Below are positions 603 to 46,636 of a stretch of DNA of 64,000 nucleotides, piece by piece. Position numbers and translations under genes: made by a program. The DNA is taken from contig MFBU01000007.1 in NCBI GenBank assembly GCA_001775055.1, positions 1,683 to 65,682 on the forward strand. The letters are read 5' to 3'. Origin of the DNA: Candidatus Curtissbacteria bacterium RIFCSPLOWO2_02_41_11. GTDB lineage: Bacteria; Patescibacteriota; Microgenomatia; Curtissbacterales; GWA2-41-24. The notes under the pieces are model-generated. The model saw only the letters and a program-made list of their open reading frames with translations. It had not been told where the DNA came from and did not search any database. Each line of letters starts with the position of its first letter. Within the stretch, counting starts at the first letter, position 1.

Positions 603-1412
603 TTAAGAAGCAAGTCTTCCTGAAAGTCCAAACTTCGCATTTAGTGCCTTCAAAAAATGACGCTGGTCAAAATAGCCAAACTTCACTCTATAATTACCTT
701 TGTATACTTTAATACTCTGTCCCTCTGTTACTTTCGTATGCTCTTGCCCATCAATAATTAGCGAAACATCATCGCCTTTGTGTACTTTAACCTCAATCTC
801 ACTTTCCGGTGATAATGCCACTGAAGGAATCGGCAGACCAATCGGGTTAATTGGCGTTATCAAAAAACAGTCAACCGCCGGATCAACAATTGCACCACCG
901 CTAGATAGTGAATAGGCTGTTGAGCCGGTTTGGGTGGAAACGATCACTCCATCACCGATAATCTCCAGAAACTTTTGTCCATTAACGTTAATCTCAAGCT
1001 TAATCACCCGATACATACCTTTCACTACCACCTCATTAAGCGCCCGATATCTAGTGCCTAGTGCCTGATGCCTAGTGCCTTGTTCAAGTACGGTCTCCAG
1101 TGTCATTCTTTCCGAAACAACATATTTGCCACTAATTAACTTATCAATCGCCTCTTGCCAATCGTCAATCTCCGCCGCCGTCAAAAAACCCAATGTCCCC
1201 ACATTAATACCAACGAACGGAACCTCCAATCCCACATTCTCGCAAGCCGCATGCAGAAGTGTCCCATCACCACCAAGAGTCAATATCAAATCAGACTTGG
1301 TCAAACCTTTATCTGACACATCATGGCCTTTTGACTTAAGATAATTTGTGATCTTATCAGCCAATCTTTCAGCTTGAGAATTTTCCTTCGCAACCACAAT
1401 CCCGAATTTCAT
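603..1412 (-). CDS. nadK: NAD+ kinase
   Basis: 269 aa; 'GGDGTLL' and 'NVGTLGFL' NAD-kinase signatures; convergent with upstream gene. Confidence 0.85.
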   Translation of the reverse strand: MKFGIVVAKENSQAERLADKITNYLKSKGHDVSDKGLTKSDLILTLGGDGTLLHAACENVGLEVPFVGINVGTLGFLTAAEIDDWQEAIDKLISGKYVVSERMTLETVLEQGTRHQALGTRYRALNEVVVKGMYRVIKLEINVNGQKFLEIIGDGVIVSTQTGSTAYSLSSGGAIVDPAVDCFLITPINPIGLPIPSVALSPESEIEVKVHKGDDVSLIIDGQEHTKVTEGQSIKVYKGNYRVKFGYFDQRHFLKALNAKFGLSGRLAS

Positions 1413-1454
1413 AAGTCCCTCCTATATGATAAAATTAGCTTCGATATCAAGACT

Positions 1455-1526
1455 GGGTCCATAGCTCAACGGCAGAGCACCACTCTTATAAAGTGGCGGT
1501 TCTTGGTTCGAATCCAAGTGGACCCA
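1455..1526 (+). tRNA. tRNA, anticodon UAU (reads AUA; Ile2-type) - identity from hand-folded cloverleaf
   Basis: 72-nt cloverleaf. Acceptor GGGTCCA/TGGACCC, D-stem GCTC/GAGC, anticodon stem CCACT/AGTGG with loop CTTATAA, T-stem CTTGG/CCAAG with GTTCGAATC loop. CCA not encoded. Confidence 0.8.
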
Positions 1527-1563
1527 CAAGTGACCAAATATTAGCACAATTTTGAAGGAAATT

Positions 1564-1590
1564 ATATCAGCCTCGCTTCGCTCCCCTATG
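1564..1590. repeat. partial copy of dispersed repeat ('tatatcagcctcgcttcgctcccc'), related to family-A TIR and the 'cgcttcgctt' elements
   Basis: shares 'tatatcag' terminus with the 4 family-A copies and 'cttcgcttcgct' with inserts in tkt and tsaD. Confidence 0.4.
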
Positions 1591-1609
1591 TAATTCTCAC
1601 GGGCTCGAA

Positions 1610-3973
1610 TTATAATCGCGCTCGGTGCACAATTTCCGCATCGACTACATTGACATCACGGCCGTAGCGAAGGCGTGAGAGTTGCTTGATCATCTCAGCA
1701 ATTCGCGGATCGCGCTCAATCTTAGCTAAATCGCGGGTTGTGTCCAGAGAAAACGGTTGCACCGGCTCATTGCGCACAATCGTCTTCACATAAGCCTGAA
1801 ACCTTTCGATATTGATTAAATCCGTTTCATTAAAAACCGGCGTAAACTCATGCTGCAGATAATTGGCATCGGTCACCCCAACTCTAAAATTAACCAAAGT
1901 TCCAACATTGCCAAAAACCGCATTTTTAACATCTTCCTCAATTTGGCCGATAAATTGGTTGGCAACAATTAGATTAAGCCTGAATTTTCTGGCCTCTGCC
2001 AAAATATCGGCGAAAGTTTCAGTGGCAAAATTCTGAAATTCGTCAACATAGAGGAAAAAGTCAGGCCGCTGCTCCTCCGGAACATCTTGTCGACTCATTG
2101 CGGCAACCAGAATTTTTGGCACCAGAACCAACCCTAAAAAGTTGGAATTTTCCTCGCCGACCCGACCCTTGGAAAGATTAACAATTAAAATCTTTTTATT
2201 GTCCATAATATCCCGCAAATTAAAGGCGGACTTTGACTGTCCAATAATATTTCTCATCATCCTGTTGGTCACAAATCTGCCGAATTTGGAAACGATGTAG
2301 TCCAAAACCTCACTTTTGTGAAAATCGGCCGTTTGGGCAATTTGATCTGTCCAATAGCGCCGCACCACCGGATCGGAAACTTTAGGCAACAGCTCCTGCA
2401 CAAAACGCGCATCGGTTAAAACCCGCACAACCTCAACGAAAGTGTTGCCGGGCTCACTCATCACCGTTAACATGGCGTTTCTGATGGCATGCTCAAAGCG
2501 CGGACCGATAATGCCGGTTTTGTGAGGGTCATAAAGTTTGTACATGAGTCCCACTATATAGGTTGCCACAAAATGCTTTTCCTGCTCAGTCTGGGCTTCT
2601 AACATATTCATGCCAAGCGGCCTCTCGCTATCAGCCGGATTAAAGTAAATAACATCTTCTGCCCGCTCCGGCGGAATTTGAGTTAAAATATCTTCCGCCG
2701 CATCGCCGTGGGGGTCAATAAAAGCCACTCCATGACCTGCAAGAATATCCTGCATCACCATGTATTTTAAAAGCTCGGTCTTGCCGGTACCGGTTTTGCC
2801 GACAATATAAACGTGGCGTCTGCGATCATCTTCACTAATATGGACTTCTTTAGTGCTCCCCCGATAAACGCTTTTTCCCAGATGAAGGCCGGAAGATGGA
2901 ATTTGCGCCGGTGCCGGAGCCCGTTTGGCATTAACCCAGAAAATTCCCGGAGTTTCCACCGTTTTATTGGGCAGGTGAAAAATACTGGCTAATTCCTCAC
3001 TATTTAAAACGCCGAAATTACCAAAAATAGGCATATAGCGGTAAACAAAATCTATTAAAAACTGTTTTTTGAAGCGGATATTGGCACCGGTAAACCCGTT
3101 GTACTCGCTAGTAAACTGGGCAAATGTCGACTTAATATTCTCAAGATGAATCTTGGCATCCTCATCGGTTTTGGCAGAAACAATAATTCTTACAACCACA
3201 TTAAAACCGACTTTGGCAACCTTATTTTCAATCGCCTCCATTTTCTTTGGATCAGGCGGTGTACGCTCCTCGGTCTTTGTCGAAAGTTCGGCTTGTTTAG
3301 TCTTGGTAACAAAGCGCTTGCCGGATGCCCTCCATTTGGCATCGGCCGGCGATGCCAAAATTTGAACAGCCGCTCCTTCCCCAGGCTGCATTTTGGCTAG
3401 TGCCGAAGTAATTTGACTTAAAGGGTCTGTACCTAGTTCCTTATAAGTTTTGACAGGATAATATTTGGCCTTATTAAGTTTTAAGGCCGCAAAAGCCAAC
3501 TTGCCTTCTTCGGAAAAAATATTATATTCTTCAACTTCCCGAACATCGGCCCCGGGATAAGCACCATGTATTTGTTTTTCGACTAAATCCTGCAGATTTT
3601 TGGGGCAGGAAATATAAAATTTAATTTCCTCAGGTAAAGCGACAATTTCAAATGAAAAATGGTCTTGAGGCCTAAGAAACGAAAGGGTTCCGCTTTTGTA
3701 AACTGAATATAAGGAAGAAAACATCTGCTCGGCCGCGTCAATCTTAATTTCGTTATCTCGTGGTACGGCAACTGAAAGCAAAACAAATTCCAGCGATCTC
3801 TCTTCCCTGTTTTTATTGCGCATCCATAGAAGCCAAATGTAACCGACAATAAGTGTCAAAATACCCAAAACCAAAAGAACCAGTGCCAAAAATCCCAGCG
3901 TCGAAAGTACCAGTTGAAAACCGGAAAGAGCATCAATTTGTCCGACCGTTTTTGAAGTTTCTTCAATCGGCAT
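1610..3973 (-). CDS. membrane-anchored VirD4/TraD/TraG-like coupling-type ATPase (DUF87/HerA-FtsK superfamily)
   Basis: 787 aa; N-terminal TM helices; Walker A 'VYIVGKTGTGKTELL', 'AFIDPHGD', Walker B-like 'FFLYVDEFQNF' typical of T4SS coupling proteins / HerA-like ATPases. Confidence 0.5.
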   Translation of the reverse strand: MPIEETSKTVGQIDALSGFQLVLSTLGFLALVLLVLGILTLIVGYIWLLWMRNKNREERSLEFVLLSVAVPRDNEIKIDAAEQMFSSLYSVYKSGTLSFLRPQDHFSFEIVALPEEIKFYISCPKNLQDLVEKQIHGAYPGADVREVEEYNIFSEEGKLAFAALKLNKAKYYPVKTYKELGTDPLSQITSALAKMQPGEGAAVQILASPADAKWRASGKRFVTKTKQAELSTKTEERTPPDPKKMEAIENKVAKVGFNVVVRIIVSAKTDEDAKIHLENIKSTFAQFTSEYNGFTGANIRFKKQFLIDFVYRYMPIFGNFGVLNSEELASIFHLPNKTVETPGIFWVNAKRAPAPAQIPSSGLHLGKSVYRGSTKEVHISEDDRRRHVYIVGKTGTGKTELLKYMVMQDILAGHGVAFIDPHGDAAEDILTQIPPERAEDVIYFNPADSERPLGMNMLEAQTEQEKHFVATYIVGLMYKLYDPHKTGIIGPRFEHAIRNAMLTVMSEPGNTFVEVVRVLTDARFVQELLPKVSDPVVRRYWTDQIAQTADFHKSEVLDYIVSKFGRFVTNRMMRNIIGQSKSAFNLRDIMDNKKILIVNLSKGRVGEENSNFLGLVLVPKILVAAMSRQDVPEEQRPDFFLYVDEFQNFATETFADILAEARKFRLNLIVANQFIGQIEEDVKNAVFGNVGTLVNFRVGVTDANYLQHEFTPVFNETDLINIERFQAYVKTIVRNEPVQPFSLDTTRDLAKIERDPRIAEMIKQLSRLRYGRDVNVVDAEIVHRARL

Positions 3974-3974
3974 A

Positions 3975-4008
3975 ATTTTAGTAACTAGTTACTAGTGGCT
4001 AGTTGCTA
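3975..4008. repeat. cluster of ACTAGT-containing short repeats ('gtaactagttactagtggctagttgctagtcaact')
   Basis: seen in sequence; similar 'actagtttttactagt' at 12420-12434. Confidence 0.4.
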
Positions 4009-4524
4009 GTCAACTCCTTTCTTAAATATCACTTTCATCGCATGCTTATGTGTCATTTTAATCAGTCTGCCAACCCAAGTGGCCAAGGCAAAAAAACTCG
4101 ATGTACCAACAACTACTTTATTGACGATAGTTCCCGCAACTTTTTGATGTAACCCTTTTTTATATTCATCTTCTGAAATTGGTAAGTTAATTGTGGTACC
4201 GCTTCTGACAACTTCATCAGCCTGCTCTTGAGGAACTTTTACCCCACTGTCTGCAACATCAGGGGCCAGTTTTGGCTCAGGCCTGGCAAGCCTTGCCTCT
4301 GATATTGCACTTTGAATTGCCTTTTCCGCCTGTTCGTCTGCTGCCTCGCTGGTTCTAATAACTTCTGAGAGGATTTTCCCCTCTTCGGCTTTAGTTTCCT
4401 GCGATGTTGGCTCCTGCTCTTTTGCCTTGACAGCACCCATCTTATCATCCGGCGGTTGTACCGGTTGGGCGGCAGTTGAGTCACCATCAGCCTGGCTCTT
4501 TAAATCTGTGGCAGTATCGGACAT
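4006..4524 (-). CDS. hypothetical acidic low-complexity protein with C-terminal hydrophobic segment
   Basis: 172-aa ORF directly upstream of the VirD4-like ATPase on same strand; no recognisable domain. Confidence 0.35.
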   Translation of the reverse strand: MSDTATDLKSQADGDSTAAQPVQPPDDKMGAVKAKEQEPTSQETKAEEGKILSEVIRTSEAADEQAEKAIQSAISEARLARPEPKLAPDVADSGVKVPQEQADEVVRSGTTINLPISEDEYKKGLHQKVAGTIVNKVVVGTSSFFALATWVGRLIKMTHKHAMKVIFKKGVD

Positions 4525-4554: not shown

Positions 4555-4650
4555 GATACATCAGAGGAGCGCACTGAGTTTATCGCACTTCGACATTGCT
4601 CAGTGCGACTCTGAGCTAATCGAAGAGTCGAAGGGCGATCTGCTGATATA
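4555..4650. repeat. family-A MITE-like repeat, copy 1 (TIR 'atacatcagaggagcgc' ... 'ggcgatctgctgatata')
   Basis: terminal inverted repeats shared with copies at 9623-9686, 37171-37256, 46578-46636; internal hairpin 'gcactgag..ctcagtgc'. Confidence 0.7.
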
Positions 4651-5908: not shown

Positions 5909-6565
5909 ATGAAACTCTTCATCGACAGCGCCAATCCAGAAGAAGTTAAAAAGATGGCCGAACTTGGCATCATTGATGGGGTAACTACTAACCCTAGCTT
6001 AGCCACCAAAGCGGGGATTGACTATCGGAAGGCAGTTGACCAGATCTTGGCCACTGTCGATGGCAATGTCAGTCTGGAAGTTTTATCAACAGATGCCCAA
6101 GGTATGATGGGTGAAGCCAGAAACCTTTCTAAACTTCATAACAATGTGGTTGTTAAGTTACCAACTACTCCAGAAGGTCTTAAAGCCCTCAAAATTCTAA
6201 AAGCTGAAAAAATCAGGGTTAATATGACCTTGGTTTTCTCTGCCAACCAAGCACTTCTGGTTGCTAAACTCGGCGCCTATATTGTTTCTCCCTTTGCCGG
6301 CAGACTTGATGACATTGGCGCATCAGCCATTGATGTGATTTCCGAAATCCGCCAAATTTACGATAACTTCGCCTTTGAAACCCAGATTCTTTTTGCCTCG
6401 GTAAGATCGCCCCTTCATGTTAAACAGGCGGCACTTGCTGGTTGCGATATTGCAACCTGCCCGTATGAAGTTCTGGAAAAATTGGTTCATCATCCCTTAA
6501 CTGATGTTGGCCTCAAAAAATTTTTGAGTGATTTTAAAGAAAGCGGCCAAAAACCGCTAGTCTGA
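5909..6565 (+). CDS. tal: transaldolase / fructose-6-phosphate aldolase (short Tal/FSA subfamily)
   Basis: 218 aa; 'MKLFIDSANPEEV...DGVTTNPSL' signature, Schiff-base lysine region 'VVVKLP'. Confidence 0.85.
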   Translation: MKLFIDSANPEEVKKMAELGIIDGVTTNPSLATKAGIDYRKAVDQILATVDGNVSLEVLSTDAQGMMGEARNLSKLHNNVVVKLPTTPEGLKALKILKAEKIRVNMTLVFSANQALLVAKLGAYIVSPFAGRLDDIGASAIDVISEIRQIYDNFAFETQILFASVRSPLHVKQAALAGCDIATCPYEVLEKLVHHPLTDVGLKKFLSDFKESGQKPLV

Positions 6566-7670: not shown

Positions 7671-7770
7671 TTCTTCCTAAATCACCTCCCTTGCCCTCCC
7701 GACTTGTCCGCCAAAACTTTAGTGTCGGCGGAAGCTTTATGCGAAGGAGGGTTTTTCCATAACCAATCAC

Positions 7771-7821: not shown

Positions 7822-8689
7822 ATCCAAATACCTCAATTTTCGCCTCAACCACTGCCGCCACCGCCAAAATTACATCCGGCACAAGCTTATACATTGCGTA
7901 TTCATCAGGATTCTCAGCCATTTTCTCACTCAAAGCATCTTTATATTCCTGCCGCAGTTCCGTATTGACATTAATTTTGACAATTTTGCCAACCTCAATC
8001 GCGCGCCTGACTTGATCAGCCGATATCCCAGATCCGCCATGCAGCGAAAGAAAAGTATTAGGCAGTGACTTGCGAATTCTTGCCAAAAGGTCAAGATCTA
8101 AATCCGGTTGAGTTGGGAAAACTCCATGGACATTGCCAAAAACCGCAGCCATTATATCGACACCGGTTTGAGATACAAACCGCGCAGCCTTCAGCGGATC
8201 AGTATATGATTTATGAAGTGCCTCAAAATCAATCTCCTCATTATGAACCACACTTGAACCGGCAATTTTGTCAATCTCTCCTTCGACAAGAACCTGCCTG
8301 CCGGCAGGCAGGGCCTTTGCATGCGCCGCTTCAATTACTTTTTTGCAACCACTGATGTTCTCTGAAAACTCAAGTTCTGAACCATCAAAGTGGATTAGGT
8401 CGAAACTTGACTGATCAATTGCTTGCATACAATCTTCAACCTTTTTTGCATGGTCCAGATTTAAAAGAATCGGAATGCCGTATTCCTCTCTCGCGTTGAC
8501 TACCAGACTGACAATATTTTTTAATCCAAAATATTCCACCTCACCTGACGAAAATTCCACCATCACCGGCGATTTTTTGCGCTGAGCCGCCACACAAATC
8601 GCCTTAAAAATATCTAAATTATCCGCATTAAACGCCCCGATAGCAAAACCATCTTGTTGAGCTTTCTCAAACCATTCTCTTACAGTCAT
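7805..8689 (-). CDS. fba: class II fructose-bisphosphate aldolase
   Basis: 294 aa; 'FAIGAFNADNLD' N-terminus and 'HGGSG' zinc-site region typical of class II ketose-bisphosphate aldolases; carries palindrome 'cctgcctgccggcaggcagg' in-frame ('LPAGRQ'). Confidence 0.85.
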   Translation of the reverse strand: MTVREWFEKAQQDGFAIGAFNADNLDIFKAICVAAQRKKSPVMVEFSSGEVEYFGLKNIVSLVVNAREEYGIPILLNLDHAKKVEDCMQAIDQSSFDLIHFDGSELEFSENISGCKKVIEAAHAKALPAGRQVLVEGEIDKIAGSSVVHNEEIDFEALHKSYTDPLKAARFVSQTGVDIMAAVFGNVHGVFPTQPDLDLDLLARIRKSLPNTFLSLHGGSGISADQVRRAIEVGKIVKINVNTELRQEYKDALSEKMAENPDEYAMYKLVPDVILAVAAVVEAKIEVFGSAGRV

Positions 8690-9622: not shown

Positions 9623-9686
9623 ATATCAGAGGAGCGCCATTGACATGAAGAACCGAAGGTTCTGTGTCAAGGCGACCTGCTGATAT
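9623..9686. repeat. family-A MITE-like repeat, copy 2 ('atatcagaggagcgcc...ggcgacctgctgatat')
   Basis: near-perfect TIRs, internal hairpin 'gaaccgaaggttc'. Confidence 0.75.
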
Positions 9687-14724: not shown

Positions 14725-14795
14725 TAATTTTCAATGAAATTTAAATTTTTAAAAATTGATTGAAAATTTCAAATTTCAAATTAAAAATTTTGACC
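14725..14795. repeat. family-F AT-rich repeat ('aatttcaaatttcaaattaaaaattt') copy 1
   Basis: ~70 nt similar to 17643-17742 and, inverted, 30950-31010. Confidence 0.55.
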
Positions 14796-15312
14796 CCGAT
14801 TTTAACTTCTCCCGTATCGGGTTAATAAATCCCTCAATCAGCAATTTTTCAGCCTCTTTTCGGCTCAATCCGCGACTCATCAAATAAAACAACATCTGCT
14901 CATCGACTTTACCGATAGTGGCTGCGTGTCCAGCCTTGACATCCGGCTCCAAAATCTCCAGGGCCGGTGTATCATCACCCATTTTAGCCTCATCAAACAA
15001 CAGCGCGTCAGACCGTAAATACGCATCTGCCCCTTTTGCACCCTTTTCGATTTTGACATCACCGCGGAATGAAAATGTCGATCTCCCCCTCAAAACCGCC
15101 CGCACATTAACATTAGATTTGGTATTGGGCGCAGCATGGGTAATATAAGCCTCGAGTGCTTTCTCCTCAACTCCTTTACCTAAGATCAACCCCACAACCT
15201 CCACACACGCACCTTCTCCTGCCAAAACAACTTCAAGTTTTTCTTCTAGGGTAACCAATCGAAGCGGTACTAACTCAGTCTGATTCTTATATAGAACTAA
15301 TTTCATAATCAA
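14776..15312 (-). CDS. sufD: SufD-like protein (C-terminal beta-helix/dimerisation part only)
   Basis: 178 aa; aligns with SufB/SufD core ('[34 protein letters not shown]'); lacks the usual N-terminal domain. Confidence 0.7.
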   Translation of the reverse strand: MIMKLVLYKNQTELVPLRLVTLEEKLEVVLAGEGACVEVVGLILGKGVEEKALEAYITHAAPNTKSNVNVRAVLRGRSTFSFRGDVKIEKGAKGADAYLRSDALLFDEAKMGDDTPALEILEPDVKAGHAATIGKVDEQMLFYLMSRGLSRKEAEKLLIEGFINPIREKLKSGSKFLI

Positions 15313-15659
15313 CCTCCTGTTAACATTTTTCTAAAATTACCAAAATCGTAGTTCGCTACCCATAAACAATTAACCATTTCATATACTAAAGAACTTAAAA
15401 ATTCTGGATCTTCATCAGTCCCAGGAGTTGTTAAGATAAAAATTCCTATGTTCTCGTTACTCAGTGCCATAAGTTCGTCAAATATCAAACCCATTTCAGC
15501 AGCCCTATCTCGTAATAACTCAAGAGGAATTTCCAGAGGAATAAAACCAGCTCCCTCAACTTCACCTAACCTCTCCATCAATCTCCCAAATTCTGGATCT
15601 AGTTCAAAAAAAGTTTTACGCACTAAATGTACGTAACTCGGCGTACCCTCCAACGTCAT
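15309..15659 (-). CDS. hypothetical acidic protein embedded in suf operon
   Basis: 116 aa; start/stop overlaps (ATGA-type) with neighbours; no known domain. Confidence 0.4.
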   Translation of the reverse strand: MTLEGTPSYVHLVRKTFFELDPEFGRLMERLGEVEGAGFIPLEIPLELLRDRAAEMGLIFDELMALSNENIGIFILTTPGTDEDPEFLSSLVYEMVNCLWVANYDFGNFRKMLTGG

Positions 15660-16234
15660 CCCACCGCTCCTTTCCTCCGACTCAAGCCATCAATAATTCT
15701 CTTTATAATTGGTGGATTCTTTTTGACTCTTAGACAAGGATAATCAATAAGATAACCTAGATTAAGCCTTTCACGAGCGTCCTTTTCTAAAGCGTCCCAG
15801 AGAGTCTGATCGTCACTAACTGCATATTCACCACTCACTTCTAAAACCCTATACCGAAAATCTAGCTCGATATCCAGCGGTTCTATAGAAAACAAGAATT
15901 TCCCGCTTTCAATTTCCTCTACGTTAATATCAAGGTCTGCTTCATTTTTCAAAATACCTCTTCTTTTCAATAAACCCGCAAGACTCAAATATGATAAGGG
16001 GTGCAGGAGTCTGCCTTTTACCCCACGCTCCCTAAATTTGCTAACCTCTTCCCAAGAAGAAATCTCTTTAATATCCAAAAAATCCTCTGGTACCTCAAAA
16101 CAACTGTCAGCAATTCTTAACACAGGCGGCCTACCCCCCTGATCCTCCCGAAATTCGATTGCGGGAATAGATCCAAGATAATCTTCGTATCTTAACTCAC
16201 CAAGATATCCTTCTTGTCGATTCTCGACAGTCAT
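15656..16234 (-). CDS. hypothetical acidic protein embedded in suf operon
   Basis: 192 aa; stop overlaps start of downstream gene, start overlaps sufB stop; no known domain. Confidence 0.4.
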   Translation of the reverse strand: MTVENRQEGYLGELRYEDYLGSIPAIEFREDQGGRPPVLRIADSCFEVPEDFLDIKEISSWEEVSKFRERGVKGRLLHPLSYLSLAGLLKRRGILKNEADLDINVEEIESGKFLFSIEPLDIELDFRYRVLEVSGEYAVSDDQTLWDALEKDARERLNLGYLIDYPCLRVKKNPPIIKRIIDGLSRRKGAVG

Positions 16235-17634
16235 TATCCTACTGCTCCTTCCATATTAAGTTGAATCAATCTGTTTAACTCCACCGCATATTCTAAGGGC
16301 AACTCCTTCACAATCGGCTCGATAAAGCCGTTTATAATTAAGGAAGTTGCTTCAACTTCAGTTAACCCCCGGCTCATTAAATAAAATAACTGATCCGCAT
16401 TAATCTTTGAAACTGCTGCCTCATGGCCAATGGTCACATTATCCTCATCAACCTGCATGGTCGGATAAGTATCGGATCGGCTCTTCTCATCCAAAATCAG
16501 CGCATCACAACGTACATTGCATTTAACTCTCTCTGCGCTTTTAATTACTTTTACCAAACCTCTATATGAGGTTCGACCTCCGCTGTGACTGACTGATTTT
16601 GAGATAATCTCACCGCTTGTCTCCGGCGCCAGAAATACCAGTTTGCCGCCCGCATCCTGATGTTGATTTTCCCCTGCCAGTGCCAAAGACAAAATCTCAC
16701 CGCGTGCTCCTCGACCGGTCAAATAACAAGATGGATACTTCATGGTAATTTTGCTGCCGATATTGCCGTCCACCCACTCCATAATCCCTTCTTCCTCCAC
16801 AAATGCCCGTTTGGTAACTAAGTTATAGACGTTGCTGGACCAGTTTTGAATGGTGGTATAGCGGCAACGCCCACCACGCTTTACAAAAATCTCCACTACT
16901 GCCGCATGCAAAGAATCAGTTGAATAAACAGGGGCCGTACAACCCTCAACATAATGCACATAAGCCCCCTCATCAATAATAATTAGCGTCCTTTCAAACT
17001 GGCCCATGTTAGCGGCGTTAATGCGAAAGTAAGCCTGAAGCGGAATCTCAACCGAAATACCCGGTGGTACATAAATAAAGGAACCTCCTGACCAAACGGC
17101 ACTATTTAATGCCGCAAATTTATTATCAGCTGGAGGAATTGCTTTGCCAAAATATTGCTTCACCAAATCACCATACTCTCGCAATCCCGAATCCATATCC
17201 AAAAAGACAACTCCTTTATCTTCCCATTGTTTTTGGAAAGAATGATAAACCGACTCACTTTCATATTGCGCCGTCACTCCGGCCAAAAACTTGCGTTCCG
17301 CCTCCGGAATACCAATGGCATCATAAGTATCTTTGATCTCCTTTGGTAGTTCCCCCCAAGATTTGGCTTGTCGATCAGTCGGCCTGATGTAGTAGTAGAT
17401 ATCGTCAAAATTAATAGTAGATAAATCCGCCCCCCATATGGGCATCTGCTTTGATTGGAAAATCGAGAGGGCCCGCAGCCTTTGCTCCCTCATCCACTCC
17501 GGCTCATTCTTAAATCCGGATATCTGACGCACAACATCAGCATCCAAACCCTTCTTGCTCTTAAAAACATACCTCTCCGGTTTGGCAAAACCGTATTTGT
17601 AATTAGTAATTGGTATTGATGCTCCGTTGGCCAT
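16234..17634 (-). CDS. sufB: Fe-S cluster assembly protein SufB
   Basis: 466 aa; strong SufB identity throughout (e.g. '[16 protein letters not shown]', '[18 protein letters not shown]', '[16 protein letters not shown]'). Confidence 0.9.
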
Positions 17635-17742: not shown

Positions 17743-18635
17743 ATCGCTTGATAACCTTTATTTTCTATTTCCCTTGCAAGCGATAATCTTCCCGATTTAA
17801 CAATCTTCCCCTCCACCATCACATGCACAAAATCAGGTTTTAAGTATTTGAGGATTCGAGCGTAATGGGTTATTAGAAGGACGGATGAACGCGGATTATT
17901 AAATCTAAACTGATTAATCGCGGATGAGACAAGCTTAAGTCCATCAACATCAAGTCCAGAGTCAATTTCGTCCAAGATCACCAATTTCGGCGAAAGGGCC
18001 ATCATTTGCAAAATTTCACTTCTTTTTTTCTCTCCCCCGGAAAAACCTTCATTTAAAGAGCGCCGCAGGAAATCATCAGAAAGTCTTAAAGACGAAGCGT
18101 ATTCAAGTAGTTCCTGACGAAATGCTGAAAGACTGCGGGTGGCAGTGGCGGAGGGGGTCCCATCGAGCGCCCGCAGACCAACCAAGGATTGTTGATTGCG
18201 TTTCGAATTAGACTTGGTCGAGGACGTCGGATGGGACGAGCCGCTGACAGGACCCGAAATCGATTGCTTTGCTCTTCTTAAAACATTAAACACGCTGACC
18301 CCCGGCACCTCTACTGGATGCTGAAATCCCAAAAAAATCCCCAATTTTGCCCGTTTGTCCGGAGTTAATTTTGTAATATCCTCTCCGTTAAATGTTATCG
18401 GTGAACTGCTTGCCCCTCGAAGCTTTAGCGGAGTGGGGTCAATTGTGAATTGCGGGGCACCCGCAATTACCTGTGCCAGCGTGCTTTTGCCACTGCCATT
18501 TGGCCCCATCAACACATGAAGTTCGCCAGCCTTGACCTCAAGGTCAATCCCTTTTAAGATCTCCTGCTTGCCCGCCATAACTTTAGTGGAGGTGGAACCT
18601 TTGATTGAAACTTTTAAATTGTTAATTTTAAGCAC
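17733..18635 (-). CDS. sufC: Fe-S cluster assembly ATPase SufC (with ~128-bp in-frame repeat insertion)
   Basis: Walker A 'GPNGSGKST', ABC signature 'GFSGGEKKR', Walker B 'LVILDEIDSGLD', H-loop 'ITHY'; likely GTG start at 18635 preceded by AAGGAG (ORF track extends to 18695). Confidence 0.9.
   Translation of the reverse strand: MLKINNLKVSIKGSTSTKVMAGKQEILKGIDLEVKAGELHVLMGPNGSGKSTLAQVIAGAPQFTIDPTPLKLRGASSSPITFNGEDITKLTPDKRAKLGIFLGFQHPVEVPGVSVFNVLRRAKQSISGPVSGSSHPTSSTKSNSKRNQQSLVGLRALDGTPSATATRSLSAFRQELLEYASSLRLSDDFLRRSLNEGFSGGEKKRSEILQMMALSPKLVILDEIDSGLDVDGLKLVSSAINQFRFNNPRSSVLLITHYARILKYLKPDFVHVMVEGKIVKSGRLSLAREIENKGYQAINF
18133..18260. repeat. dispersed element inserted in-frame in sufC (same family and frame as 27346-27484 in tkt)
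   Basis: shares 'tgcgggtggcagtgg...gagg' start and 'ctgacaggacccgaaat' end with tkt copy; encodes 'ISGPVSGSSHPTSS...SATATRS'. Confidence 0.7.
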
Positions 18636-24139: not shown

Positions 24140-24215
24140 CTACCTCCACCTCGGGGGAGTCAAAGCCTGCCTACCGGCAGGCAGGTCCACCCCCAAGGTG
24201 ATTGCATATATGTAG
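24140..24215. repeat. GC-rich palindromic element ('cacctcggggg...gcctgcctaccggcaggcagg...cccccaaggtg')
   Basis: nested inverted repeats; the 'cctgcc..ggcagg' palindrome recurs at 8293, 35496, 51116. Confidence 0.5.
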
Positions 24216-25841: not shown

Positions 25842-27881
25842 TTACCCCAAAATTTCCCTAACTTTATTAATAATAGAAGAAGCAGAAATTCCTTCCCAGT
25901 CAAGTAATTGATCGGGTTTCCCCGACATCGGCAATTTGCCAACCGCCAGCTTATAAATTTTAACCTTTCCACTTTGGGCAAAAACATTTAAAACCGCATC
26001 GCCAAGACCCCCGTCAAAATAGTGATCCTCAACCGTAATAATCAAATTATTGGTTTGTTGGGCAGATTTTTTGAGGGTTTTCTCATCAATCGGTTTGATA
26101 CTGTAGGCATCAATTACTCTGACTCTAATTCCTTTTTTGGCAAGTTCATCGCAAGCTTTTATCGTCTCAATTAGAGTCACCCCACAGGCAACAATTGTCA
26201 GCTTATCATCTTTACTTGATCTGACAACTTTACTGCCACCGATTTTAAACTCTTCTTTCTGATCATAAATGACAGGTGTTGCTGGTCTGTTTGTGCGAAT
26301 GTAGAAAATGCCCTGATTTTCGGCAGCCAGCGCAACTAGCCGGACACAGGAAACAGCATCAGCCGGATATAAAATCGTACTGCCGAAAATTGAGCGAAAC
26401 ATTGCCAGATCCTCAAGCCCCATTTGTGAAGGGCCGTCTTCGCCGATTGAAACACCGGCATGCGAACCCACAAATTTGATATTGGCACCAGAAATCGCAC
26501 TTATTCTAATTTGATCGGCTGCCCTACTTAAAAAAGCCGCGAAAGTCGAGACAAAAGGAATTTTGCCGCGTTTAGAAAGACCAAGTGCCACACCAACCAT
26601 ATTTTGCTCGGCAATAAACATTTCAAAAAACCGCTCTGGGTATTTTTCTTTAAAAAGTTCAGAATATGTTGAATTCTTGACTTCCGCATCAAGACTGACT
26701 ATACGTGGATCAATCTCGCCAAGTGCAACTAATGCTTCCCCGTAGGCTTTGCGAGTCGGAACCATCTCGCCTAATTGATAATTAACTTTTAATTTTTGAT
26801 TTGTAATTTTGAATTTTGAATTTCCCGACCTCGTCTCGACTCGGTCGAGGACGGGTTGAATTTTGAATTTTTCTGTAGTTGGTTTCTTTATCTCGCTCTT
26901 GATCTCAAAATCAATCTCACCTAATTCTTTTACTGCCTCTTTAAATTGTTCTTCGGATAACGCCTTTCCATGCCAACCTTCCTTATCCTCCAAAAAGCTA
27001 ACACCTTTACCTTTAATTGTTTTAGCAATAATCATCTGGGGTTGACTCGATCCATCTGGCAACAAATCAAGAGTCCGCACAATAGACCTTAGATCGTGTC
27101 CATCTACAAGATGAGTTTGCCAACCAAAAGCCTCAATGCGCTCTTTATATTTATCAACGTCCCAACCAAGCATCGTCTGACCGCTTTGCCCAAGTCTGTT
27201 AATATCAATAATGCCCACCAAATTACCCAGTTTATAATAAGAAGCAAGCTCAACAGCTTCCCAAACTGATCCTTCGCTAGTCTCAGAATCACCCATCAGA
27301 ACGTACACTTTTGGAAGAGTATCACGGGTATCACGAGCTTGAGAATTGCGGGTGGCAGTGGTAGGAGGGTTCCCGACCCCACTTCGCTTCGCTTCGAGGG
27401 GCACAGCAGCGCTATCATCGCTGGCGGGCTTGCCCACCGAAGCTTTAGCGGAGGCGGGAGGGAAACCACTGACAGGACCCGAAATTCTCATCGCCAGTGC
27501 CATCCCAAGACCAATCGAAAGCCCCTGCCCTAAAGAACCGGTTGCCACATCCACATATTTAAAACGGGGAGTCGGATGCCCTTCAAGCGGACTTTCAAAC
27601 TTCCGATAGCCATCTAATTCTTTCTCTGTCAATACTCCAGCTGCAGCATAGAGTGCATAAAGCAGAGGTGAAGCATGGCCTTTGGAAAAAATCACCCTAT
27701 CATTAGCCGAATTTTGGGGATTTTCAAGATCAAATCGCAAGTGATTAAAGAAAAGGGCAACCATCAGATCGGTTGCCGAAAGCGAAGAGGTTGGATGTCC
27801 CGAGCCGGCCTTGGTAGTCATGCGCAAAATATAATAACGAACTAACTTCGCCAGCTTCTCAAGCTTAGCAATATCTGCCAT
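25842..27881 (-). CDS. tkt: transketolase (with two in-frame repeat insertions)
   Basis: 679 aa; ThDP motif 'GDSETSEGSVWEA', 'SHAGVSIGEDGPSQMGLEDLAMFR', N-terminal 'AGSGHPTSSLSATDL'. Confidence 0.85.
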   Translation of the reverse strand: MADIAKLEKLAKLVRYYILRMTTKAGSGHPTSSLSATDLMVALFFNHLRFDLENPQNSANDRVIFSKGHASPLLYALYAAAGVLTEKELDGYRKFESPLEGHPTPRFKYVDVATGSLGQGLSIGLGMALAMRISGPVSGFPPASAKASVGKPASDDSAAVPLEAKRSGVGNPPTTATRNSQARDTRDTLPKVYVLMGDSETSEGSVWEAVELASYYKLGNLVGIIDINRLGQSGQTMLGWDVDKYKERIEAFGWQTHLVDGHDLRSIVRTLDLLPDGSSQPQMIIAKTIKGKGVSFLEDKEGWHGKALSEEQFKEAVKELGEIDFEIKSEIKKPTTEKFKIQPVLDRVETRSGNSKFKITNQKLKVNYQLGEMVPTRKAYGEALVALGEIDPRIVSLDAEVKNSTYSELFKEKYPERFFEMFIAEQNMVGVALGLSKRGKIPFVSTFAAFLSRAADQIRISAISGANIKFVGSHAGVSIGEDGPSQMGLEDLAMFRSIFGSTILYPADAVSCVRLVALAAENQGIFYIRTNRPATPVIYDQKEEFKIGGSKVVRSSKDDKLTIVACGVTLIETIKACDELAKKGIRVRVIDAYSIKPIDEKTLKKSAQQTNNLIITVEDHYFDGGLGDAVLNVFAQSGKVKIYKLAVGKLPMSGKPDQLLDWEGISASSIINKVREILG
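26809..26870. repeat. hairpin element with 15-bp flanking direct repeats, in-frame in tkt
   Basis: 'ttgaattttgaattt' + 'cccgacctcgtctcgactcggtcgaggacggg' + 'ttgaattttgaattt' (TSD-like). Confidence 0.6.
27346..27484. repeat. dispersed element inserted in-frame in tkt (same family/frame as 18133-18260 in sufC)
   Basis: encodes 'ISGPVSGFPPASAKASVGKPASDDSAAVPLEAKRSGVGNPPTTATRNSQ'; also contains 'gaagctttagcgga' shared with 18415 and 7737/44199. Confidence 0.7.
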
Positions 27882-29591: not shown

Positions 29592-30935
29592 ATGTTTTCT
29601 TTAGCCCAAAATTATTTAACTCGTGGGTTTTGGGGTGATGAGGCCTGGACTTCCTTGATTTCCCAACTTCCCTATTTGCAAATGTTAAAGACCACTGCTG
29701 CCGACTTTCATCCTCCAGCCTACTACACAATCGTCGAGATCGTTTATAAATTTTTGCCGCCAACAGAAATAGTCACCCGTTCGATTTCGATCGTCTTCTA
29801 TTTGTTAACTATATTTCTTGTATATAAACTGGCCTCAGAAGTTAAAGGCCCCACCTCCGCTGAAGCTTCGGTGGGCAAGAAACTTTTTGGCATAATTTCG
29901 GCGCTGGTGGTTGCCGCCAATCCGATCTTTTTTATCTACGCTTTTGAAGCCCGAAATTACACCATGTTTGCCTTTGCGGCGACCGGATCCATTTATTTTC
30001 TAATTAAACTTTCTGAAAATTTTAGCTGGCGGGCTGCAGTTGGCTTTGTACTTTTTTCAACTTTGGGAATCTACACCCATTACTACATGTTTTTTATTTT
30101 GGCAGCCCAAGGTCTTTATTTAATTCTTTTTGACCGCAAGATTCTTTTAAAAGTAATCGGTCTTTACATAGTGGTAGCAATTTTATACTTGCCCTGGATT
30201 CCCTTTTTGGCAGGACAAGTTAAGTCAGCTGGTCAAAATTATTGGATCGGAGCAATCGACCAAAGAACTCATTTTGAAGCAATTTTGCGCATTTTTGGTG
30301 GAGAGTTTAAAAATGCTTTTCGACCATTTTTGTTTAGCCTGTCAGTAGCACTTTTGGTCATAGGGTTGATCCAACATGCACTGCGCCACAAGTTTGAGAA
30401 GCCGTATCTTCTAATTTGGCTCTGGGCAACTGTGCCCTTTATTTTGGCAAGCCTGCCTGGCTTGGCCATTGACGGATTAAAATTGCCTTTTCGCCCGATT
30501 TTTTTCTGGCGCTATCTAATCGGCGCGGCAGTTCCTCTTGCCATAGTGATGGTTCATACGAGTGAGAAATTGCCGAAGTATCTGTTTGTAATCTCAATTG
30601 CGGCAATAATCGCATTAAGTATTATCATTGACGCTTTAACTTTTAGCAGATATCCTTACACTTTTCGCCAGGCTTATCAGCAAAAAATATTGCCGAAAAT
30701 TTCCTCCCAAGATAAAATTGTGACGGTTCTGCCATCTTTTGCCGAAGTTGCCTATTATAGGCAGCGATTTGGGATTAAAAACGACTTGATTGTTCTACCG
30801 GAAGGCTTGGTGCAGTTTTCCGGCAAAAGCCTGCTTGACGCCTATGTCGAAAATCAAATAGTGACAATTGACGAAGCACCATCCGGAAATTATTTTGAAC
30901 TAAGACCGGGACCAAGTTTAGTGATTAGAGACTAG
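29592..30935 (+). CDS. GT39/ArnT-PMT-like membrane glycosyltransferase
   Basis: 447 aa, ~11 TM; N-terminal 'GFWGDEAWTS' + periplasmic loops typical of GT-C family 39 enzymes. Confidence 0.55.
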   Translation: MFSLAQNYLTRGFWGDEAWTSLISQLPYLQMLKTTAADFHPPAYYTIVEIVYKFLPPTEIVTRSISIVFYLLTIFLVYKLASEVKGPTSAEASVGKKLFGIISALVVAANPIFFIYAFEARNYTMFAFAATGSIYFLIKLSENFSWRAAVGFVLFSTLGIYTHYYMFFILAAQGLYLILFDRKILLKVIGLYIVVAILYLPWIPFLAGQVKSAGQNYWIGAIDQRTHFEAILRIFGGEFKNAFRPFLFSLSVALLVIGLIQHALRHKFEKPYLLIWLWATVPFILASLPGLAIDGLKLPFRPIFFWRYLIGAAVPLAIVMVHTSEKLPKYLFVISIAAIIALSIIIDALTFSRYPYTFRQAYQQKILPKISSQDKIVTVLPSFAEVAYYRQRFGIKNDLIVLPEGLVQFSGKSLLDAYVENQIVTIDEAPSGNYFELRPGPSLVIRD

Positions 30936-35464: not shown

Positions 35465-36290
35465 GCGTTAATCGGTTACGAAGCCAGTTTCGTTTACCTG
35501 CCTGCCAAGCAGGCAGGGCGGTTACGTTTTACGTCTGACGCCTCACGATACGGGCGTCGTCACCCTAACCGTCTGACCTTAACCCGCGCTCCTTGCTATC
35601 TCTACCTCTTTTTCAATATCAACGGCAAAAACCCAGGAAAAGTTGGCCGCCACCACAAAAGCTATAATGGCAATCTGCGCATAGGTTACTCCCAGAATCG
35701 TCGAGATAACTAAAAAAGCCACAGAAAGCCAAAGGAAAACGAGCCAAATGGCCGCCTGATGATAAAGGTGGTAACTTGGAGCAACTAAGCTTTCCAAATT
35801 GAGTCGAACTAGTCTGGCATGAAGAGTTGGATGGATGTGGCTTTCATGAAAAAAGTGGGCACGCACCAAAACTATAATTGTGCCCAGGGCGGCTATTGAA
35901 AACATCGCTAAATTCGAATAATTTTCGGCAATAGTGTAATTGGCCAAATCGGTAAAGTGAACAGATGGCAACACCTTAAAAATTTGGCCATTGACAAGAG
36001 TTATGGGCATTTTTAAAAAATAGATGACCAGAAAAAGCCCGAGCATTTTACCAAAGATCAAGGCTGCAGCCGGCATGATCGCCTCATCAATTAACTTGGC
36101 TAGCGATTTGGTGATCATACTCTAAATATAGCAGATTCCGGAAAGCAGATGGTTACGGTGACGATACCCGTTTCGTGAGGCGTTTTGGGTCTTACGTGTT
36201 TATTGGTTTTTACGATTAACGTAACCGATAAACGATACGAGCATCGTGACCCTTCAGCTCTAAACGAAACCCAGGCAAACTGACTTCGCC
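35465..36290. mobile_element. candidate non-autonomous cassette: ~100-bp imperfect inverted repeats flanking one membrane-protein gene
   Basis: left arm 35531-35575 'acgtctgacgcctcacgatacgggcgtcgtcaccctaaccgtctg' is reverse-complement-similar to right arm 36146-36197; outer segments also match ('cgaag(c/t)cagttt', 'cggttacg'). Confidence 0.5.
35579..36118 (-). CDS. hypothetical 5-TM membrane protein (cargo of IR-flanked cassette)
   Basis: 179 aa; no known domain. Confidence 0.35.
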   Translation of the reverse strand: MITKSLAKLIDEAIMPAAALIFGKMLGLFLVIYFLKMPITLVNGQIFKVLPSVHFTDLANYTIAENYSNLAMFSIAALGTIIVLVRAHFFHESHIHPTLHARLVRLNLESLVAPSYHLYHQAAIWLVFLWLSVAFLVISTILGVTYAQIAIIAFVVAANFSWVFAVDIEKEVEIARSAG

Positions 36291-36315: not shown

Positions 36316-37152
36316 TCATGGTAATTTTTTAGCATACTGGCTGGAAATCCAGCCTTGTTTATCCTCAAATTTAACCTTGACCCAATCTTTCGTCTCCTGA
36401 ATAATTTCCAGCTCGTCTCCCGTCTTGACCCTGCCAATTTCCGGTGAGTCGAGTGAGGCTTCTTTGCGCACTCTCAAAAACCCTGTCGGAGTAGCTAAAA
36501 TCCGCACTTTTTGAACTGATAGTGCAGGAACCGGTGAAGGTTGAACTTGGGGATTTTTGGCTATTTCCGAGGCCAAAGTGACATCGGCAACTACCTGATA
36601 TTTATTTGAGGCTTTAACAGCAAACTCACGATTAATATAACCAGCCTTAGTAAGGGTAATTTTATGTTCGCCTTCTTCAAGTTTTTCGACTAAATATGGA
36701 GTTTTGCCGACTAACTTACCGTCCATAGTAATCTCCACTTCACTCGGCATTGATGAAACAAAAAGACCCCTTTTACCACTTTCAAGCCAAAGAGTCTCAC
36801 CAGACTCGGCCAAAAAATTATTGGCAAGCTCCCGGTTAACGACCGTTAAAGTTCCACCGCTCAAAGTTATTTTTTCGACAAAACTAGCCTCACCAGCCGT
36901 AATTTTTAGCAAATATTCGCCAACTTTAAGCTGATCGGAAAAAAACGGGGTTTTGCCAAGGTGCTTACCATCAAGAAAAACCGAAGCCTCGGGAATAGAA
37001 GTAATCTGAAGCGCTGCCGGTTTGGTCGTACCGATGGCACTGCAACCGAAAAAAATAGTAGCTAGTAGCAGGTAGCTGGTAGCTGGTAGCAAGACTTTTA
37101 GGACTTTAGCTTTAGTCGTTAAATGTTTAGCTTTTGACGATATGAAAGGCAT
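36316..37152 (-). CDS. lipoprotein with PEGA domains and C-terminal SH3b domain
   Basis: PEGA-like 'ITSIPEASVFLDGKHLGKTP' and 'EITMDGKLVGKTPY'; C-terminal 'GDELEIIQETKDWVKVKFEDKQGWI' SH3b-like; start set at internal Met so the ORF does not run over repeat copy 3. Confidence 0.5.
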   Translation of the reverse strand: MPFISSKAKHLTTKAKVLKVLLPATSYLLLATIFFGCSAIGTTKPAALQITSIPEASVFLDGKHLGKTPFFSDQLKVGEYLLKITAGEASFVEKITLSGGTLTVVNRELANNFLAESGETLWLESGKRGLFVSSMPSEVEITMDGKLVGKTPYLVEKLEEGEHKITLTKAGYINREFAVKASNKYQVVADVTLASEIAKNPQVQPSPVPALSVQKVRILATPTGFLRVRKEASLDSPEIGRVKTGDELEIIQETKDWVKVKFEDKQGWISSQYAKKLP

Positions 37153-37170
37153 TGGACTTAAGTTAACACT

Positions 37171-37256
37171 TTGACTTCGCTCAGTGCAAGATCCTGCTTC
37201 GCAGGATTTTACTATATCAGCAGGTCGCTGAGTCTGACTCGGCGCTCCTCTCATAT
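37171..37256. repeat. family-A MITE-like repeat, copy 3 (reverse orientation)
   Basis: 'tatatcagcaggtcgc...ggcgctcctctcatata' plus upstream 'gacttcgctcagtgc' related to copy 1 interior. Confidence 0.7.
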
Positions 37257-44139: not shown

Positions 44140-44225
44140 CTTCGCCAAGGCTACGGAGGGTAAACCCCCTTCGCCACAACTATTGGAGGGCTCGCTCTCC
44201 GAAGCTTTATGCGAAGGAGAGCCCG
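44140..44225. repeat. pyrG-leader hairpin repeats ('ccctcc...ggaggg', 'gctctccgaagctttatgcgaaggagagc')
   Basis: 18-mer 'gaagctttatgcgaagga' identical to 7737-7754. Confidence 0.55.
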
Positions 44226-44857: not shown

Positions 44858-44940
44858 TTTTGATACTCCCCCATCACCCACTCCTGAGTATCTTGCGGGT
44901 GGAACAAGAGTTGGTGGTCCCCTATTTTTTCGGGTGGTGA
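44858..44940 (-). pseudogene. orphan duplicated 3'-end fragment of the nucleotidyltransferase gene (45677-46564)
   Basis: ~85 nt ~80% identical to 45728-45812; translates to 'EKIGDHQLLFHPQDTQEWVMGEYQKR' vs 'EKIGKHQLFFHPQNTGEWVMEEYQKR'. Confidence 0.5.
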
Positions 44941-45629: not shown

Positions 45630-45680
45630 CCAAGTCAGACTTGGTATGACAATACTACCAATTTTTGTCATACCTGTCAA
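45630..45680 (-). promoter_or_regulatory. vapBC promoter (TTGACA-17-TAGTAT) with 10-bp inverted repeat GGTATGACAA/TTGTCATACC and 'ccaagtcagacttgg' palindrome
   Basis: seen in sequence directly upstream of vapB ATG. Confidence 0.5.
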
Positions 45681-46577: not shown

Positions 46578-46636
46578 ATATCAGCAGGTCGCCTTGGCTA
46601 CAAGCCAATGGCGCTCCTCTGATATATCATAATCAC
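46578..46636. repeat. family-A MITE-like repeat, copy 4
   Basis: 'atatcagcaggtcgcc ttggctacaagccaa ggcgctcctctgatat'. Confidence 0.75.

Follow-up and report, generated by a model that had tools for sequence, protein, structure and literature searches.

A hairpin-forming dispersed repeat with unequal inverted ends in Candidatus Curtissbacteria and related Patescibacteria

Introduction

The 64,000-nucleotide stretch of Candidatus Curtissbacteria bacterium RIFCSPLOWO2_02_41_11 analysed here (assembly GCA_001775055.1, contig MFBU01000007.1, positions 1,683 to 65,682 of the forward strand; hereafter the window) carries four copies of a short repeat, family A, in which an A-end, ATATCAGAGGAGCGCC, and a B-end, GGCGACCTGCTGATAT, enclose a hairpin core of 11-60 nt. 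About 190 copies of this family were assembled from genomes of the Candidate Phyla Radiation (CPR, or Patescibacteria) and from groundwater metagenomes. [quoted passage not shown] CPR genomes are regarded as streamlined and poor in mobile DNA. We found no description of such repeats in CPR bacteria in the literature, and the end sequences appeared there nowhere in a relevant context.

Family A in the window

We searched the whole window for the end motif ATATCAGMRGRKCGCC with up to two mismatches, using 100 shuffled sequences as the control. Eight matches were present where 0.25 were expected, a number that none of the 100 shuffles reached, and these eight pair into four elements with one A-end and one B-end each. 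A covariance model made from the copies of relatives, and run on the window with its filters off, returned just these four copies, with 72.1 (copy 2), 71.4 (copy 4), 38.6 (copy 3) and 18.7 bits. The termini that a sequence-only reading of this DNA had described as common to four copies are thus shared far above chance. That reading placed copy 2 exactly; copy 1, which it set at 4555-4650, was located correctly, but its exact limits differ (Table 1). Copies 3 and 4 had been drawn too long (37171-37256 and 46578-46636), with 37171-37213 being flank that contains other small hairpins and everything beyond 46625 being flanking DNA. The cores had also been put at 30-70 nt, longer than their measured range, and the supposed partial copy at 1564-1590 has only ATATCAG in common with family A, without AGGAGCGCC, and resembles a short sister class of hairpins.

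The four copies are spaced 5-27 kb apart, at a density of about one per 16 kb, in both orientations and among housekeeping genes. Their intergenic placement, as first described, was confirmed: copies 1, 2 and 4 lie 33, 21 and 13 nt upstream of the minus-strand starts of ORF (open reading frame) 4006-4524(-), of rpiB (start at 9601) and of ORF 45677-46564(-), respectively, with copy 2 following the stop of a Pyr_redox gene by 50 nt and copy 4 that of a solute-binding-protein gene by 60 nt. Copy 3 is flanked by divergent genes, a PEGA/SH3 gene whose start (~37152) it precedes by 61 nt and an M23 peptidase gene 130 nt away. Copy 1 has a composite core, in which three CTGAG-N4-5-TCGAAG modules are nested or adjacent; in copy 2, which folds with z = -6.4, the core reads ATTGACATGAAG-AACCGAAGGTT-CTGTGTCAA, and the core of copy 3, GAGTCAGACTC, is the inner part of a recurrent mini-hairpin module, TCGAGTCAGACTCGA.

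The longest ORF of the PEGA/SH3 gene, 36316-37254(-), reads through copy 3. Because comparison with a 278-aa ortholog in L075 places the true start near 37152, this overrun indicates that hairpin repeats can lengthen ORF calls.

Structure of the element

Every copy folds into one hairpin in either strand, with z-scores of -2.8 to -7.1. The base of this hairpin, which we call the clamp, consists of the outer stem (T)ATATCAG/CTGATAT(A), followed by a bulged G and the pairs AGG/CCT, above which come a 2x1 internal loop (AG opposite A), CGCC/GGCG and a bulged A. Past the bulged A, TTG.../...CAA opens, in most copies, a stem of free sequence and length that is capped by a C-GAA-G or GAAA loop; in the smallest element (L177), the core is 'gaa' alone. 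The termini had been taken for complements of one another, but fixed indels set the A-end apart from the reverse complement of the B-end, so that the ends are unequal in a fixed way (ATATCAG-AGGAGCGCC versus ATATCAGCAGG-TCGCC, 16 nt each, as inverted pairs in all four copies). An element always has one A-end and one B-end, and A+A or B+B elements were absent among the collected copies.

Covariation was evaluated in a 44-sequence alignment, with shuffles and slid pairing partners as controls. Paired cells made up 95.6% of this alignment, and double-change cells numbered 73, compared to 17.7 in the shuffles, a signal that was destroyed when the pairing partners were slid. At one inner pair, we observed GC 16 times, CG 9 times, AU 8 times and UA 4 times. 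Because one and the same pair occurs as G-C, A-T or T-A within single subfamilies, with a G.A intermediate in attgGcac...gtgAcaa, we consider these to be genuine compensatory changes and not merely differing palindromes.

The loops are strand-fixed when the element is read from A to B: among 107 distinct cores, CGAAG was found 50 times and CTTCG 3 times, and TGAAA 14 times and TTTCA twice. The covariance model assigned 72 bits to the A-to-B strand and only 18-20 bits to the reverse strand, and the structure is therefore strongly asymmetric. A third argument, strand choice by mismatch type, was discarded when an initial G.U excess (29 vs 6) fell to 21 vs 12, with 11 of these from one column. 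After its collapse, the strand argument rests on the loop motifs and the covariance-model scores. Two known motifs were also rejected, namely a kink-turn (in both strands, the internal loop lacks a G.A/A.G tandem beside a 3-nt bulge) and a bulge-helix-bulge splicing motif (no 3-4-3 geometry).

Distribution

One genome per species was scanned with a two-ended pattern, which gave 55 loci, 53 of them holding real elements, nearly all in CPR/Patescibacteria assemblies. Most are Curtissbacteria, and some records are labelled Daviesbacteria, Uhrbacteria or Saccharimonadales; some metagenome-assembled genomes are labelled 'uncultured Gammaproteobacteria', yet their proteins are 66-83% identical to those of other loci. 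In metagenomes, mainly from groundwater, a scan with a short 15-mer pattern gave at least 68 full copies, and 52 of the 120 matches listed were 'orphan', being chance matches in coding DNA (such as a ThyA YQRSAD motif), decayed, or cut by contig ends. The RpiB protein adjoining copy 2 is 100% identical to that of Candidatus Curtissbacteria bacterium RIFCSPHIGHO2_12_41_11. Because the family recurs in other genomes and in metagenomes, its copies are not confined to the window and its termini do recur elsewhere, so that neither outcome named in the sequence-only reading as a refutation was observed.

No real family-A copies were present in viral contigs, and phage carriage was rejected on that ground. 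In Rfam 15, just the tRNA reached the gathering threshold, the best other match being mir-216, whose 20.8 bits fall short of the 53.5 required; SRP RNA, Y RNA, ribozymes and other Rfam families were without matches, and we regard the sub-threshold ones as chance hairpin likeness. A DNA uptake sequence was also rejected, as the arms are not one motif and their density is ~1 per 8 kb.

Turnover and persistence of the elements

Copy 2 was identical in ten strain-level contigs, and strain-level polymorphism at this copy was rejected. Its site is empty in L070 (85% RpiB identity), where the spacer measures 57 nt and reads ...ctggaAT/aggaATG, and also in two 80% relatives, L071 and L072; in a 78% relative, other small hairpins are present there. 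The sites of the remaining copies are occupied in relatives. That of copy 4 is filled in L075 and L076, with one substitution, and that of copy 3 is filled in L075 in the same orientation, with a wholly different core (28 nt vs 11 nt); the window has an extra 19-nt mini-hairpin beside this copy, and the flanks otherwise align well. At the site of copy 1, L197 (83% protein identity) has an element that is oriented alike and whose ends are canonical, but whose core is rearranged. At this site the ends are identical at 29 of 32 positions (~91%), and the intergenic surroundings are largely unalignable. Dispersal was also evident: genome MFCA01 has three loci with near-identical cores, and four genomes share an identical 56-nt element, at unrelated sites.

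Occupied sites extend to deeper divergences. Four genomes, with GrpE proteins 55-69% identical, have an element between grpE and dnaK, 35-38 nt before dnaK, and this site is empty in a fifth genome, L048. An element lies 19 nt before pth in three genomes (Pth ~51% identical) and is flipped in a fourth, and in four genomes one lies 71-516 nt upstream of an Xer-like tyrosine recombinase gene. All of these sites were found via the element pattern, by which their perfect ends are partly forced, but their shared position and orientation are not.

Family A abuts the short sister class head-to-tail, with a junction that shares exactly 'AT'. A composite array of a short-class hairpin, a third small hairpin (GTCGCTCTGC-loop-GCAGAGGAAGAC) and family A occurs in L032, L059, L102, L120/L129, L123 and L179, and the family-A member of this array is flipped in one genome.

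These observations bear on whether family A could be a classical MITE, that is, a deletion derivative of an insertion sequence (IS) with a DDE transposase (IS630/Tc1-like or similar) that moves by cut-and-paste and duplicates TA, AT or TATA. The elements are small, intergenic, multi-copy, dispersed and insertion-polymorphic, with (imperfect) terminal inverted repeats (TIRs). Their flanks read T/ATATCAG...CTGATAT/A (T at -1 in 49 of 59, A at +1 in 44 of 58), giving TATA/TCAG...CTGA/TATA, and the 'AT' shared between neighbouring elements would also suit such a duplication. We nevertheless judge this origin decidedly unlikely, as fixed indels distinguish the two ends of every copy, and neither a covarying interior nor strand-fixed loops are needed by a transposase that binds TIRs in double-stranded DNA. 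Furthermore, no long copy, orphan A-end with coding cargo or transposase was found in the ~1.2 Mb around the ~190 elements. A target-site duplication is inseparable from the TIR because ATAT/TATA is palindromic, and for this reason, and because the sole empty site lacks a clean junction, no clean duplication can be read. The MITE-like character first proposed therefore holds for the inverted ends, the dispersal and the insertion polymorphism, but the ends are consistently unequal, and no clean target-site duplication or cognate IS was seen in the window and the element-bearing loci.

In integron attC sites, a conserved outer stem is followed by an unpaired spacer, an inner stem and extrahelical bases, and one folded strand is functional. 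Family A has the same succession: its outer stem of 7 bp is conserved, and there follow an unpaired spacer, a short second stem, extrahelical bases and a variable terminal structure. It could then be a folded-hairpin recombination site, like attC or CTX attP, at which a tyrosine recombinase would swap cores, and even small genes such as those for tRNAs, as cassettes. The replacement of whole cores at orthologous sites with the ends kept, the Xer-like gene that has an element upstream in four genomes, and a tRNA-Met gene within an ATATCAG...CTGATAT hairpin (described below) are in line with this idea. However, no cassette arrays, intI or attI were found, the elements are dispersed single copies, and the ATATCAG/CTGATAT outer stem resembles neither the attC core sites (RYYYAAC/GTTRRRY) nor dif. 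Adjacency to the recombinase gene is no commoner than the dnaK or pth sites, and nested insertion or deletion would also yield core differences. We therefore regard attC as an attractive structural analogy without direct support, and a recombination site of this kind as highly improbable.

Genomic context

The neighbours of the copies include rpiB, dnaK, pth, miaA, pilM, the Xer-like gene, and genes for an oxidoreductase, a PEGA/SH3 protein, an M23 peptidase and a solute-binding protein. Tested as a gene-specific cis-regulator, family A had no functionally coherent set of downstream genes, and both of its orientations occur. For 59 copies read from A to B, the flanking genes were arranged as -/- in 18 cases, +/+ in 14, divergent in 14 and convergent in 2, so that convergent spacers are clearly avoided and orientation relative to flanking transcription is random (18 vs 14). 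An element end faces a gene start in 69 instances and a stop in 39, commonly from 8-40 nt away.

The sequence-only reading had also suggested that the copies act as terminators. This was not upheld: a terminator scan called none of the four window copies, the ends facing upstream stops are A in 16 cases and B in 19, and the elements are randomly oriented and nearer to starts than to stops. The end together with its flank often spells TGATATAAT, a look-alike of an extended -10 promoter element, and this candidate, though suggestive in single instances, was rejected as well (T at +3 in 20 of 51 start-facing and 8 of 35 stop-facing flanks, not significant; promoter scan negative). About 10% of copies have a tRNA gene no more than 35 nt away, which is near the prediction from the number of tRNA-flanking spacers, and a tRNA association was dropped. 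A replication origin near 48 kb, at the GC-skew minimum, was dropped too, as the neighbour there encodes a solute-binding protein and not dnaA.

In agreement with the initial description, Pfam searches of the ~50 window ORFs gave no transposase, and they gave no integrase or HUH protein. All-vs-all clustering of ORFs from 121 element-bearing loci revealed no recurrent protein family beside the elements other than orthologous neighbours. A tblastn search of element-bearing loci with an IS200 TnpA sequence (an approximate query) was negative, and no gene for a REP-associated tyrosine transposase (RAYT; Y1 HUH) was present in the window or in the element-bearing loci examined.

Conservation at given sites invites the alternative that family A is a conserved cis-acting element, in which the clamp would be bound, as DNA or as RNA, by a host protein (for example, a hairpin between cistrons that serves mRNA processing or stability, or a promoter-proximal or nucleoid site), kept by purifying selection at each locus. 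Its multiplicity would then reflect function, not mobility. The same site, orientation and near-identical spacing are found where flanking proteins are 50-83% identical (grpE-dnaK, pth, Xer-like), and in comparisons found through proteins (sites 3 and 1) the ends are better kept than their intergenic surroundings. The depletion of convergent regions and the tendency of ends to face starts would also be expected of such an element, and the tRNA gene in a long ATATCAG/CTGATAT stem recalls processing stems. Against this, orientation to transcription is random despite the strongly asymmetric structure, the flanking genes have nothing in common, and nested and tandem 'junk' architecture is common. 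Moreover, site 2 is filled in the window but empty in close relatives, the grpE-dnaK site is empty in L048, and the copies have no Rfam match, are not called terminators and lack a significant extended -10. A selected cis-element appears unlikely.

Mini-hairpins nested in apical loops

Several of the longer cores can be derived from known shorter ones by adding, within the apical loop, an insertion that is flanked by a 5-nt duplication of the loop. The inserted mini-hairpins are 15-22 nt long and land in GAA-type loops. In L141, for example, ...gacCGAAGggtg... has become ...gacCGAAG-tcgagtcaaactcga-CGAAGggtg.... The 15-nt module of L141 is flanked by two copies of TGAAA in L111 and by CGAAG repeats in L140 and L151, and in L181 it stands apart from any family-A element, with a CTTTG repeat on either side. 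The core of window copy 3 corresponds to the inner part of this module. L143 carries a 22-nt hairpin between two CGAAG copies, its base form being L161. The apical part of family A is thus a landing pad for still smaller units, and this landing explains both the range of core lengths and the rapid change of cores.

Elhai et al. (Genome Research, cited in PMC3116915) reportedly described in 2008 small dispersed repeats of Nostoc that are tiny hairpin units with compensatory changes, nested in other repeats and in copies of themselves, and are said to have argued that these are among the smallest mobile elements. We offer this comparison as a lead; the family-A modules differ from the Nostoc repeats in sequence and phylum, and in their 15-22 nt length, C-GAA-G/U-GAA-A loops and 5-nt duplication.

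Larger cargo may also occur. L027 contains, at 6357-6478, a complete tRNA-Met gene within a 19-bp stem whose base is ATATCAG/CTGATAT, and the clamp can therefore enclose cargo, or else act as a processing stem.

Other repeats and gene oddities

A tRNA-Ile gene with the anticodon TAT (UAU) lies at 1455-1527, ahead of the short-class hairpin at 1564-1590 (Table 1), and the relative L042 has the same tRNA. Such a tRNA-Ile is uncommon among bacteria. In L042, 3040-3271(-) is syntenic to window positions 1412-1610 and contains the halves of a tRNA gene, GGATCCGTAGTTTAACGGTAAAACGGGACTCTTAAAT ... AGGTCTTGTCGATGGTTCGACTCCATCCGGATCCA, ~190 nt apart, with the complete tRNA-Ile(TAT) in an 8-bp stem and a family-A element in the gap between them. 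Joined in silico, the halves gave a cloverleaf accepted by ARAGORN. This split tRNA is either a disrupted gene or a gene whose intervening sequence is very large.

A second palindromic repeat family, CTTGCCCACCGAAGCTTTAGCGGAGGCGGG and TGCGGGTGGCAGTGG..., is situated within protein-coding genes, apparently in frame, and adds peptides such as GPTSAEASVGK, PPASAKASVGKP and TPLKLRGASS. It recalls the Rickettsia palindromic elements, which insert into ORFs. A third hairpin repeat has the form CCTGCCTGCC-loop-GGCAGGCAGG. Perfect hairpins with stems of at least 6 bp number 127 in the window, compared to 53 in shuffled sequence.

Inverted repeats of 38 nt that are 87% complementary bracket ORF 35579-36118(-), which codes for a 179-aa protein that matches no Pfam family and whose ortholog in L038 is 71% identical. 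The Suf operon at 14776-17634 comprises a SufBD-core fragment (176 aa), two ORFs without Pfam match and then a full SufB-like ORF, an order that may reflect a split or interrupted sufD.

Table 1. Positions and properties of repeats in the window
Feature	Position	Strand	Ends	Core or context
Family A, copy 1	4558-4649	+	degenerate, ACATCAGAGGAGCGCA / GGCGATCTGCTGATAT	60 nt
Family A, copy 2	9623-9686	+	canonical	32 nt
Family A, copy 3	37214-37256	-	slightly decayed, ATATGAGAGGAGCGCC / AGCGACCTGCTGATAT	11 nt
Family A, copy 4	46578-46625	-	canonical	16 nt, ATTGGCTTGTAGCCAA
Short hairpin class, probable decayed member	1564-1590	+	ATATCAG (class form: ATATCAG-CC-hairpin-CCCTGATAT)	37 nt after tRNA-Ile(TAT)
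Mini-hairpin beside copy 3 (19-nt indel)	37188-37207	-		perfect hairpin ATCCTGC-GAA-GCAGGAT; missing from L075
Second repeat family	18134-18161, 18397-18438, 18555-18602			SufC-like ABC ATPase gene
Second repeat family	27347-27464			transketolase gene
Second repeat family	29850-29879			PMT_2 gene
Second repeat family, further sites	7703-7738, 44184-44209, 44894-44921
Third hairpin repeat	8293-8312, 24165-24182, 35497-35517, 51117-51135
38-nt inverted repeats	35538-35575 / 36146-36183			bracket ORF 35579-36118(-)

Discussion

Small dispersed hairpin repeats are a known kind of element, on which family A is a variation that is new in its clamp, in its range of hosts and in mini-insertions that target loops and bring a 5-nt duplication. 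By membership tests, family A is REPIN-like in behaviour, yet it belongs with neither REPs nor attC sites, and it fits a classical MITE poorly. REPINs combine a pair of conserved inverted ends with a variable spacer that shows compensatory changes, and insert into or next to each other (PMC3116915), and TnpA_REP needs a bulged hairpin in single-stranded DNA (PMC8266576). Family A shares with the REPIN-RAYT system its conserved inverted ends, its extragenic and non-coding nature, its clusters and its long persistence, as well as the inverted-doublet feature of a long hairpin whose variable spacer is constrained to pair by compensatory changes; a bulged imperfect hairpin is the likely recognition feature on single-stranded DNA in both. 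A REP is defined as a short, imperfect palindrome with a GTAG or CGTC tag in front of it (PMC3733652, PMC8266576), whereas the family-A end has neither an internal hairpin nor either tag. Family A also differs from REPIN-RAYT in its CPR host, its unrelated sequence and the absence of a RAYT gene near the elements seen. In the Correia repeat enclosed elements (CREE) of Neisseria, which are bacterial MITEs, the core is conserved, the TIR types are defined and TA is duplicated (PMC2649163). Like family A, they are short and intergenic, with inverted ends that fold in transcripts, a position beside gene starts and possibly promoter-like ends, but the core of family A is hypervariable and its ends are unequal.

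We propose a mechanism that would account for this combination. The asymmetric clamp would be the recognition module for one trans-acting protein, encoded elsewhere in the genome, that acts on the element when it is folded as a hairpin in the A-to-B DNA strand. Propagation or homogenisation would be limited to copies still able to fold, which would keep the ends identical and the stems paired and leave the core free to change. An enzyme of the HUH/Y1 type or the tyrosine-recombinase type acting on folded single strands would be the most plausible class. Effects on neighbouring genes, from a hairpin 8-40 nt before starts and possibly from the -10-like TGATATAAT, would be side-effects and not the cause of conservation. 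A further step, which we put forward tentatively and think rather improbable, is that ~1 Mb CPR genomes harbour hierarchical hairpin replicators, in which the clamp hairpins of family A and its short sister class spread as folded single strands by a dedicated enzyme and their C-GAA-G loops receive 15-22-nt mini-hairpins with a 5-nt duplication.

Several observations weigh against a mobile, REPIN-like repeat. No autonomous partner or cognate enzyme was found in ~1.2 Mb of element-bearing DNA (the window, 55 genome loci and 118 metagenome loci). Single-strand transposition of the IS200/IS605 type would be expected to leave an orientation bias, and orientation, judged by flanking genes as a proxy for replication direction, proved random. 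The stem mismatches show no clear strand preference (G.T 21 vs A.C 12, with 11 of the 21 in one column of one subfamily), the comparison of empty L070 with the filled site gives a junction that is not clean, and the perfect ends in the collected set are partly forced by exact-match collection. Finally, occupancy of the grpE-dnaK and pth sites at 50-70% protein identity, in fixed orientation and at fixed spacing, fits a selected cis-element equally well as a long-lived selfish one.

On either reading, the ends of family A are conserved across divergences where other intergenic DNA cannot be aligned, and the family would be a useful marker for binning and strain typing of CPR metagenomes. Its hairpins can mislead gene callers, as happened with ORF 36316-37254 at copy 3. 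If the elements are functional, they would represent a lineage-wide protein-binding hairpin just upstream of many start codons. If they are selfish, these organisms would encode an unrecognised hairpin-specific enzyme, and family A would offer a tractable system for the persistence of very small replicators in minimal genomes, with the 5-nt duplication at GAA loops as a concrete molecular footprint. Should hierarchical replication be correct, the mini-hairpins would be among the smallest mobile DNA units described, carried by a clamp that can itself hold cargo such as a tRNA gene.

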